Below, one piece after another: positions 34,475-34,759 of a DNA stretch of 64,000 nucleotides. Each line of letters begins with the position of its first letter. The first letter of the stretch is position 1. Below the pieces are notes generated by a model. That model was not told where the DNA came from. It worked only from the letters and a program-made list of their open reading frames with translations, and searched no databases. Source of the DNA: an uncultured Flavobacteriales bacterium. Its GTDB lineage: Bacteria; Bacteroidota; Bacteroidia; Flavobacteriales_D; JABDKJ01. Made by a program: the position numbers and the translations under genes. The stretch spans positions 16,394 to 80,393 of the forward strand of contig CAZSQZ010000009.1 in assembly GCA_964609215.1 (NCBI GenBank), in the 5' to 3' direction.

Positions 34475-34548
34475 TACCCCTCCTAGGATTCGAACCTAGA
34501 CTGTAAGGATTTTAAGTCCTATGCCTCTGCCAATTGGGCCAGAGGGGC
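34475..34548 (-). tRNA. tRNA with Leu anticodon UAA but a short (5-nt) variable region
   Basis: GCCCCTC/TG/GCCC-AATTGGCAG-AGGC/A/TAGGA-CTTAAAA-TCCTT/ACAGT/CTAGG-TTCGAAT-CCTAG/GAGGGGT/A. 74 nt. Confidence 0.6.
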
Positions 34549-34558
34549 AATTAAACTT

Positions 34559-34681
34559 GTGCTCTGTAGGGGAGAACCCCTATTTTCTGATAGAACTTAG
34601 CGAAGCGATCTCAACGAATCCATTGGAGATCATTCCCCTTGAGTCAAAGTCAGATGTACCAGCGGTTCTACTAGCAGAGCA
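34559..34681 (-). ncRNA. ~122-nt aberrant tRNA-like RNA (5' 43 nt tRNA-colinear, internal ~55-nt insert, tetraloop hairpin in place of the T arm)
   Basis: GCTCTG…CAGAGC terminal helix. U8. D-like GTA…TAC. TCTGA-CTTTGAC-TCAAG (UUG loop, weak stem). Insert with GATCTC-13 nt-GAGATC (34607-34630). TAGGGG-TTCT-CCCCTA lies directly before the 3' acceptor strand. Confidence 0.35.
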
Positions 34682-34685
34682 TTAG

Positions 34686-34759
34686 TGCGGAGAGAGAGAC
34701 TCGAACTCTCAAATACCTGATTCTAAGTCAGGCGCCTTTGCCAATTTGGCCATCTCCGC
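34686..34759 (-). tRNA. tRNA with Leu anticodon UAG but a short (5-nt) variable region
   Basis: GCGGAGA/TG/GCCA-AATTGGCAA-AGGC/G/CCTGA-CTTAGAA-TCAGG/TATTT/GAGAG-TTCGAGT-CTCTC/TCTCCGC/A. 74 nt. Its D arm is paralogous to that of 34475..34548. Confidence 0.65.

Follow-up and report, generated by a model that had tools for sequence, protein, structure and literature searches.

How does a bacterial tRNA with a leucine anticodon function when it lacks the long variable arm of tRNALeu? This question is raised by two genes, Leu-UAA and Leu-UAG, in a stretch of 64,000 nucleotides (nt) from an uncultured Flavobacteriales bacterium (assembly GCA_964609215.1, contig CAZSQZ010000009.1, positions 16,394 to 80,393), referred to below as the window. 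The genes belong to an already published kind of tRNA, type I tRNALeu. The best explanation overall is that they encode functional leucine-accepting type I tRNAs of a back-up array, which leucyl-tRNA synthetase (LeuRS) would read via A73 and the tertiary core. Judged from the sequences, this is quite probable. The rule that tRNALeu is always long-armed outside animal mitochondria was repeated in a 2023 identity review (PMC9976931), and a preliminary description of the two genes, made from the sequence alone, had regarded their architecture as a bacterial anomaly. That premise was overstated, as a type I tRNALeu has been published for Streptomyces and scans showed such tRNAs to be widespread in Actinomycetota and phages. 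Of the three options offered in that description, charging by LeuRS through A73 and the core is favoured by the evidence, another amino acid identity is poorly supported, and a role as non-charged decoys stands as a rival reading.

Both genes were called as tRNAs by ARAGORN and by the Rfam tRNA model RF00005, with scores of 55.1 bits (E = 4e-9) for Leu-UAA and 69.6 bits (E = 4e-13) for Leu-UAG at a gathering score of 29. The leucine anticodons and the 5-nt variable regions (ACAGT and TATTT in DNA letters) that had first been noticed were borne out by ARAGORN, the Rfam alignment and our own parse, and A73 was found in both genes by the latter two. The Leu-type D-arm strings reported earlier are right only as the reverse complement, because the genes are on the minus strand. 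The two D arms are GCCC-AAUUGGCAG-AGGC and GCCA-AAUUGGCAA-AGGC (Rfam alignment and own parse). They are of the class II kind, with a stem of 3 base pairs (bp), a 13.22 mismatch and the loop AAUUGGCA(G/A). U8, A14, A15, G18G19, A20a, U48 and A73 are all present, and the elbows are fully canonical for bacteria (G18G19, T54-A58). The class II-type D arm (AAUUGGxAG loop) and A73 of canonical tRNALeu are thus present in both genes, and its long variable arm (>10 nt, stem-loop) is absent. The possibility had been raised that the fold was wrong and that a covariance model would find a long arm; none was found by the Rfam model, and a long-arm fold is ruled out by the Rfam alignment together with the constant spacing across the family described below. 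Since the neighbouring tRNA-Tyr of the same array (83-84 nt) retains its class II arm, the short arm is specific to Leu within the array.

Published work on leucylation provides a precedent. E. coli LeuRS requires A73, A15-U48, G18G19 and A20a, not the long arm, and armless minimal variants of E. coli tRNALeu are still LeuRS substrates (PMC9976931). Such variants are charged provided that A73 and the D/T-loop tertiary contacts are in place, features which the window genes share, although the variants are engineered and the window genes natural. A natural type I tRNALeu(CAA) was described in Streptomyces coelicolor and was shown to be leucylated in vitro (Fan et al. 2019, NAR; PMC6614811). It is charged by the single LeuRS of this organism and by human mitochondrial LeuRS, charging needs U8-A14 and the 5-nt loop, and the gene, which could not be deleted, is essential (PMC6614811). 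Its variable loop (A44-C45-A46-G47-C48) reads ACAGC, compared to ACAGU in window Leu-UAA, and U8-A14 is common to both. It is because this tRNA with a near-identical loop is leucylated that genuine Leu-accepting tRNAs are considered the best reading of the window genes. The S. coelicolor tRNA occurs alongside type II tRNALeu in an organism with only one LeuRS. It differs in being the essential housekeeping CAA isoacceptor of a high-GC actinomycete, whereas the window UAA and UAG genes are accessory copies in a Bacteroidota array; in addition, A73 was reported as no identity element in the S. coelicolor system, and C48 takes the place of U48. Animal mitochondrial tRNALeu resembles the window genes in its class I architecture and in A73 and A14 as determinants, but has degenerate D and T loops and a dedicated LeuRS, unlike the canonical elbows found here.

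By this precedent, LeuRS would recognise the window tRNAs as it does normal bacterial tRNALeu, through A73 and the elbow and core (U8-A14, A15-U48, G18G19, A20a) and also through the class II-style 3-bp D stem with its 13.22 mismatch, the long arm being dispensable. With U34, the anticodons UAA and UAG would cover the UUR and CUN boxes, so that the pair could be a minimal complete Leu decoding set.

The two genes belong to a large family. IMG/VR was searched with a pattern in which 27 nt separate a fixed D arm from the T loop; this pattern fits a 5-nt variable region only and leaves the anticodon free. The scaffold matched in 106 viral contigs, and all 91 unique viral matches carry a Leu anticodon (UAG 38, UAA 28, CAA 18, GAG 3, AAG 2, CAG 2). 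A73 is present in 91 and U48 in 90 of these 91 sequences, neither base being imposed by the search patterns. The same viral loci harbour 161 short versus 24 long Leu tRNAs, and their Ser and Tyr tRNAs remain class II, with lengths of 81-97 nt for almost all Ser and 80-93 nt for Tyr. A slightly degenerate pattern, applied to one genome per GTDB species, revealed the short-arm scaffold in at least 120 bacterial genomes. Among the matches listed these are mostly Actinomycetota (Nocardia, Gordonia, Corynebacterium, Mycobacterium, Amycolatopsis and others), the remainder being from Planctomycetota and a small number of further phyla, and a Leu anticodon, A73 and U48 occur together in 120 of 120. 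The listed actinomycete genes mostly have the anticodon UAA and G1-C72 (L127-L246, e.g. L130 3559-3778). One Planctomycetota metagenome-assembled genome carries three short-arm Leu genes in tandem (CAG, UAA, GAG).

The cloverleaf of the short-arm family is supported by covariation. In 93 members sharing <80% identity with each other, 20 of the 21 cloverleaf pairs are canonical in 90-100% of sequences, and most helix pairs occur as 4-5 pair types; shifted controls pair in 38-50%. C13.A22 is found in 92 of the 93, and the commonest variable loop is ACAGU, the same as in window Leu-UAA. When the scaffold was loosened, the rare sequences with non-Leu anticodons (Gln, Asn, Ile) had different D stems, and G73 occurred in just 3 of 221 sequences. 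Consistency between isotype and anticodon, proposed earlier as a check, was assessed with anticodon-masked isotype profile hidden Markov models (HMMs). The top-ranking profile was short Leu in both cases (58.0 and 43.4 bits); the second-best for the UAG copy was canonical long-arm Leu.

Comparison of the region with cultured phages by BLAST yielded annotated tRNA-Leu genes of 74-77 nt in Bacillus phage P59 (UAA and UAG adjacent), Serratia phage Kamaji, Vibrio phage 1.208.B and Pseudomonas phage PPSC2. Short Leu genes were also verified in Cronobacter phage S13, cyanophage P-RSM6, Lactobacillus phage LP65, Mycobacterium phage Kykar and Myxococcus phage Mx1, and the E. coli K-12 phage mistaenkt has a short Leu-UAG and a short Leu-CAA beside an 89-nt Ser tRNA. 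The phage genes (P59, phi19:1, mistaenkt, S13, LP65, P-RSM6) have a common scaffold consisting of the D arm GCCCAAUUGGCAGAGGC or close variants, A73, U48 and a 5-nt loop. Their UAA, UAG and CAA copies are often paired, in tRNA clusters whose Ser and Tyr members keep long arms. The window copies differ in residing on a bacterial chromosome beside repair genes, and they show ~72-83% identity to any phage copy. Cellulophaga phage phi19:1, which has a Flavobacteriaceae host, carries a cluster of Pro-UGG, Gln-UUG, His-GUG, short Leu-UAG and Arg-ACG. All these anticodons are shared with the window array, at a sequence identity of only 62-72% compared to a non-cognate background of 57%. By analogy, the short Leu of phi19:1 suggests that flavobacterial LeuRS accepts such tRNAs. 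Short Leu genes have been in phage records since 2004 (e.g. Lactobacillus phage LP65). In a literature search, type I tRNALeu in bacteria or phages was found discussed nowhere beyond the Streptomyces paper, and the phage genes were not treated as type I.

A second metagenome bacterium, L007, provides a comparison between species. It has the same RNA-repair island with the same flanking genes and a ligase that is 88% identical, and its array contains ten intact tRNAs, both short Leu genes included. In the alignment of the two arrays the spacers differ by 9.9%, while Leu-UAG shows no substitution in 74 positions, against a neutral expectation of 0.9^74 ~ 4e-4. Leu-UAA differs at five positions, four of which make up two compensatory T-stem pairs; the fifth is G9/A9, both bases being common in the family. 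The two genes are under purifying selection, and the identity of Leu-UAG together with the structure-preserving changes in Leu-UAA disfavours the view that either is an unexpressed relic.

The genes are part of an array (34244-35455) of ~12 tRNA genes, 8 intact and 4 interrupted, within 1.2 kb (Table 1). ARAGORN predicted eight minus-strand tRNAs between 34243 and 35192, all of which also match the Rfam tRNA model; their order of transcription is Cys-GCA, Tyr-GUA, Gln-UUG, Leu-UAG, Leu-UAA, His-GUG, Phe-GAA, Arg-ACG. The array is accessory and phage-like and does not consist of host housekeeping tRNAs: its tRNAs resemble phage tRNAs, and its content varies between close relatives. The minus strand, the accessory array and its setting in an RNA-repair island, instead of housekeeping tRNA genes, had been overlooked in the preliminary description.

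Table 1 Features of the tRNA array and the surrounding RNA-repair island (positions in the window)
Feature	Position	Strand	Remarks
tRNA-Leu(UAA), type I	34475-34548	-	74 nt; variable region ACAGU; G1-U72; A73
tRNA-Leu(UAG), type I	34686-34759	-	74 nt; variable region UAUUU; G1-C72; A73
tRNA-Arg(ACG)	34244-34315	-	intact; ARAGORN, Rfam
tRNA-Phe(GAA)	34321-34393	-	intact; ARAGORN, Rfam
tRNA-His(GUG)	34398-34468	-	intact; ARAGORN, Rfam
tRNA-Glu(UUC)	34560-34680	-	52-nt anticodon-loop insert and 3-nt T-loop deletion; aligned with intact L007 Glu
tRNA-Gln(UUG)	34765-34835	-	ARAGORN, Rfam
tRNA-Pro(UGG)	34842-34963	-	50-nt T-loop insert; aligned with intact L007 Pro
tRNA-Tyr(GUA), class II	35029-35111	-	ARAGORN, Rfam
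tRNA-Cys(GCA)	35121-35192	-	ARAGORN, Rfam
tRNA-Ser(GCU)	35199-35312	-	hairpin insert of 28 nt at 35215-35242, in T loop between positions 57 and 58
First array element, class II-like tRNA, G73	35316-35455	-	anticodon-loop insert of ~55 nt
Strong intrinsic terminator	35468-35500	-	12 nt upstream of first array element
Leader open reading frame (ORF)	35527-35646	-	39 codons, conserved (MKIALEH..., MKIALEHIIQAHLVQEQGCSSLRLFYPEFKKFYREKHLK); upstream of array
Terminator between RlaP and array	35927-35959		followed by AT-rich stretch before leader ORF
RNA ligase (PF09414, weak Rnl2-like)	33578-34225	-	starts ~18 nt past last tRNA
Weak YrlA (Y RNA-like, tRNA-mimic) element	32866-33013	-	downstream of ligase; 28.6 bits, E = 0.003
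SPFH/Band_7 protein	31451-32551	-	island end; also in L007 and L248
RlaP nucleotidyltransferase (PF10127), second	36137-37207	-	Pfam
RlaP nucleotidyltransferase (PF10127)	37204-37950	-	Pfam
All-helical conserved protein, 239-244 aa	37962-38696	-	between RtcB and RlaP
RtcB RNA ligase	38641-40026	-
WYL/WCX-domain regulator	40091-41140	+	divergent; Pfam on identical JGI contig

Of the interrupted members, window tRNA-Glu(UUC) is probably decayed. The anticodon-loop insert of the first element is present in the window as well as in L007, where the orthologue gives a full-length match to the tRNA-Sec model (34.6 bits); a more distant island, L248, has an intact Ser(UGA) at this position. The L007 Cys and Phe genes contain 28-nt inserts between positions 57 and 58 (about 9003-9103 and 9815-9915) that are homologous to the one in window Ser, and the window copies of Cys and Phe are intact. 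The inserts are thus polymorphic between two arrays that are ~90% identical. The 28-mers are predicted to form hairpins that project from a T arm left otherwise intact. Only these three 28-mers are clearly related. A 12-nt core is shared by the Glu insert, in the opposite orientation (p = 0.003), and the Pro insert has no relation to the others; homology among all inserts was rejected. An archaeal-type bulge-helix-bulge around the inserts was likewise rejected, the predicted fold being a hairpin in an enlarged T loop. No further copy of the 28-nt insert was found elsewhere in the window, and a metagenome scan for the 28-nt T-loop insert returned 5 matches, none in an interrupted tRNA. By eye, extra lesions are seen in window Ser (a 1-nt deletion in the anticodon stem) and L007 Cys (G19A and a 7.66 mismatch); compensatory changes occur in the interrupted Pro (7-66) and Phe (6-67) genes. 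The inserts may be introns, copies of a loop-specific mobile mini-element, or products of decay. L007 has an extra tRNA (9655-9728) with the predicted anticodon UUA, a putative ochre suppressor, which is missing from the window as a clean 80-nt indel. By eye it has G3.U70 in the acceptor stem, with A73 (alanine identity), and A33 in the anticodon loop.

The island is ordered WYL/WCX regulator, RtcB, helical protein, RlaP, RlaP, terminator, leader, tRNA array, RNA ligase, YrlA-like element and Band_7. RlaP extends damaged RNA 3' ends by one or two nucleotides and helps to restore repaired tRNAs (PMC12776372). The ligase is probably co-transcribed with the array, given the short distance between its start and the last tRNA. 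A syntenic YrlA match occurs in L007 (11217-11321, 23.9 bits), both matches being under the gathering score of 69; a Ro60/TROVE gene is not present in the window island and is found in a related island (L247). The window is identical to a 122.9-kb JGI metagenome contig, and its identification as a phage was rejected on the basis of its Pfam content and chromosomal Flavobacteriaceae flanks. It encodes UvrA, a SusC-like TonB receptor and proteins sorted by the type IX secretion system (T9SS), and two species share its flanks (UvrA, sigma factor, pseudouridine synthase, T9SS proteins).

The only homologues of the helical protein that were found come from Flavobacteriaceae (Urechidicola, Tenacibaculum, Polaribacter, Algibacter, Psychroserpens), and the four loci fetched via these homologues are all RNA-repair islands. 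The protein (244 aa) matched no Pfam or NCBIfam family, and its AlphaFold model, though confident (pLDDT 87, pTM 0.83), gave no PDB fold match with E < 0.1. The more distant Flavobacteriaceae islands harbour the same genes and an RtcB2-PrfH module, and one of them also Ro60/TROVE, Rnl1 and PNKP. Strains of Tenacibaculum, Algibacter and Urechidicola are among the carriers of related islands with tRNAs. The tRNA sets of the more distant islands are of smaller size and include no Leu: Ser-UGA, Ser-GCU and Tyr in L248 (16820-17600), Ser-UGA and Cys in L249 (20481-20650), and Pro and Tyr in L250 (7804-7972). Inspection of L248 by eye also revealed a Pro-like piece and the 5' half of a class II Leu-UAG fused to an Asn-like 3' part. 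Homologues of the window ligase with 68-83% identity are mostly located in phage-like contigs (L009, L118, L119, L121; with integrases, ERF, terminase and, in one, RlaP), which points to Flavobacteriaceae and their phages having exchanged repair genes. The idea that ligase and array travel together found no support: in the 20 kb fetched around such 68-83% identical ligases, from four phage-like contigs and a bacterial one, the single tRNA seen was an unrelated tRNA-Arg in L009, ~4 kb away from the ligase.

The closest known parallel in setting is formed by the cyanobacterial L-arrays, accessory mobile tRNA arrays linked to RtcB like the one described here (Santamaria-Gomez et al. 2021; PMC8421152). 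They have been proposed to aid survival under translational stress, and some of their members are atypical or cleaved (PMC8421152). The window array, at ~12 genes, is shorter and forms a physical part of a WYL-regulated RtcB/RlaP/ligase island. A leader ORF and a terminator lie before it, where the Anabaena L-array has promoter direct repeats.

With the strong terminator only 12 nt before its first element, the array must be transcribed by terminator read-through. This terminator is conserved before the tRNAs in L007, L248 and L249. In L248 and L249 homologous small ORFs (MKYIIEH..., MKQYLQH...) also precede the tRNAs, with the island-specific protein only 43-48% identical to that of the window; the leader elements are at L007 8566-8752, L248 16617-16800 and L249 20280-20470. 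In the window 24 of 38 leader codons are read by array tRNAs, compared to a background of 34.6% (P = 3e-4), and in L007 23 of 41 (P = 4e-3). Each of the 11 isoacceptor classes of the array is represented in both leaders, the two Leu tRNAs by UUA and CUG, and in a post hoc test such complete sampling was seen in 0.1-0.3% of random or real host-gene windows. Weak Rfam Phe_leader matches coincide with the leader ORF/terminator element. A classical attenuator is plausible at the leader on the basis of these predictions, and the codon content suggests ribosome-mediated attenuation that senses the supply of array tRNAs. A scan for sigma-70 promoters was uninformative (12 sites versus 11.8 expected), Bacteroidota promoters being outside the models of the tool used. 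When translation is compromised, for instance through cleavage of host tRNAs by anticodon nucleases, the array and ligase would be read through the leader ORF and terminator; the array would then supply replacement tRNAs, and the ligases would meanwhile repair broken ones.

Several observations weigh against functional Leu-accepting tRNAs in an inducible back-up array. E. coli LeuRS and a second Streptomyces LeuRS are unable to charge the Streptomyces type I tRNALeu (PMC6614811), and because of these failures acceptance of an armless tRNALeu has to be regarded as enzyme-specific. E. coli LeuRS uses the A15-U48 pair, which is present in the window and phage members, and the Streptomyces tRNA has C48; it may be this difference that causes the failure of the E. 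coli enzyme. The host LeuRS and the canonical tRNALeu set lie outside the 64-kb window. A14, A15, G18, G19 and A20a were imposed by the search patterns and are therefore not independent family-wide evidence. Leu-UAG departs from the family consensus at 13.22, 21 and 46 (A13.A22, A21, U46), and CCA is not encoded in either Leu gene. The decayed or interrupted state of Glu, Pro, Ser and the first element implies relaxed constraint on some array members. Lastly, an antiterminator formed by a GGAG segment in the last leader codons and the terminator 5' arm is weakly predicted, in three of four loci (shuffle p = 0.02-0.08).

Some of these points would fit tRNAs that are transcribed and remain outside translation; they would serve tRNA-targeting nucleases as decoys or sponges, or the neighbouring WYL regulator, RtcB, RlaP or ligase as ligands or substrates. 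Both Leu genes are embedded in an RNA-repair island with a tRNA-like YrlA-type element nearby, a sponge role was proposed for the rtcB-co-regulated tRNA arrays of Anabaena (PMC8421152), regulators of repair operons are known to bind fragments of damaged tRNA (PMC7790460), and the failure of E. coli LeuRS on type I tRNALeu would be in line with an uncharged state. A decoy has no need of correct anticodons, yet among the matches listed the scaffold is 100% Leu, with anticodons from two codon boxes and with A73 and U48. Moreover, the same scaffold is an essential tRNALeu(CAA) in Streptomyces, it occurs in lytic phages without such repair islands, and its anticodon stems covary as in working tRNAs. 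A decoy role is considered unlikely. Another reading takes the genes for unexpressed remnants of a phage-derived tRNA cluster in slow chromosomal decay; it could explain the inserts or deletions in four neighbouring members, the phage-like character and varying content of the array, and the presence of 68-83% identical homologues of the adjacent ligase in phage-like contigs. This is very unlikely in view of the 74 identical positions of Leu-UAG at ~10% neutral difference (P ~ 4e-4), the structure-preserving substitutions in Leu-UAA, and the conservation of leader, terminator and chromosomal flanks in two species.

Recoding or mistranslating tRNAs, which would have Leu anticodons and be charged with a different amino acid, are conceivable in so far as class I architecture is atypical for Leu and the sister array of L007 holds the predicted UUA suppressor with its G3.U70. 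All published LeuRS core determinants are present in the window genes, however. No determinants of another synthetase are evident in them: they have no G3.U70, and they have A73 with a Leu-type D loop. The anticodon-masked profiles class both as Leu, and none of the scaffold matches listed combines a non-Leu anticodon with A73, all of which makes this alternative extremely improbable. For the preferred reading, functional type I tRNALeu, we infer aminoacylation by the flavobacterial LeuRS, inducible expression and a back-up role.

A farther-reaching proposal, tentative and rather doubtful, is that the locus is an undescribed damage-responsive spare-tRNA operon, in which the leader gates the terminator on tRNA depletion, the armless Leu tRNAs evade damage, and the T-loop inserts are spliced or mobile. 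If this were true, loss of any array-encoded tRNA would turn on replacement tRNAs and an RNA ligase alongside RtcB and RlaP, and the armless Leu tRNAs would be kept for escaping whatever damages or titrates host class II tRNALeu. The 28-nt T-loop hairpins would be either RNA-level intervening sequences resealed by the island ligases or a new mobile mini-element specific for tRNA loops.

The unusual aspects of the findings are the breadth of the short-arm design in phages and Actinomycetota and the repair-linked array with its candidate leader and insert-bearing neighbours. With the two genes the evidence grows that the long-arm rule for tRNALeu outside animal mitochondria is wrong for a large and under-discussed set of tRNAs. 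The exceptions comprise tRNALeu of phages from many virus families, chromosomal genes of many Actinomycetota and Planctomycetota and, newly, an accessory array of Bacteroidota. This has consequences for isotype prediction in annotation pipelines, and it bears on how the LeuRS of different phyla handle armless substrates, given the failure of E. coli LeuRS on one such tRNA. It also raises the question why mobile elements prefer the short-arm design. The locus itself is possibly of more weight, as a compact and comparatively tractable case in which tRNA replacement is physically coupled to tRNA repair, with a candidate leader that may sense multiple tRNAs.

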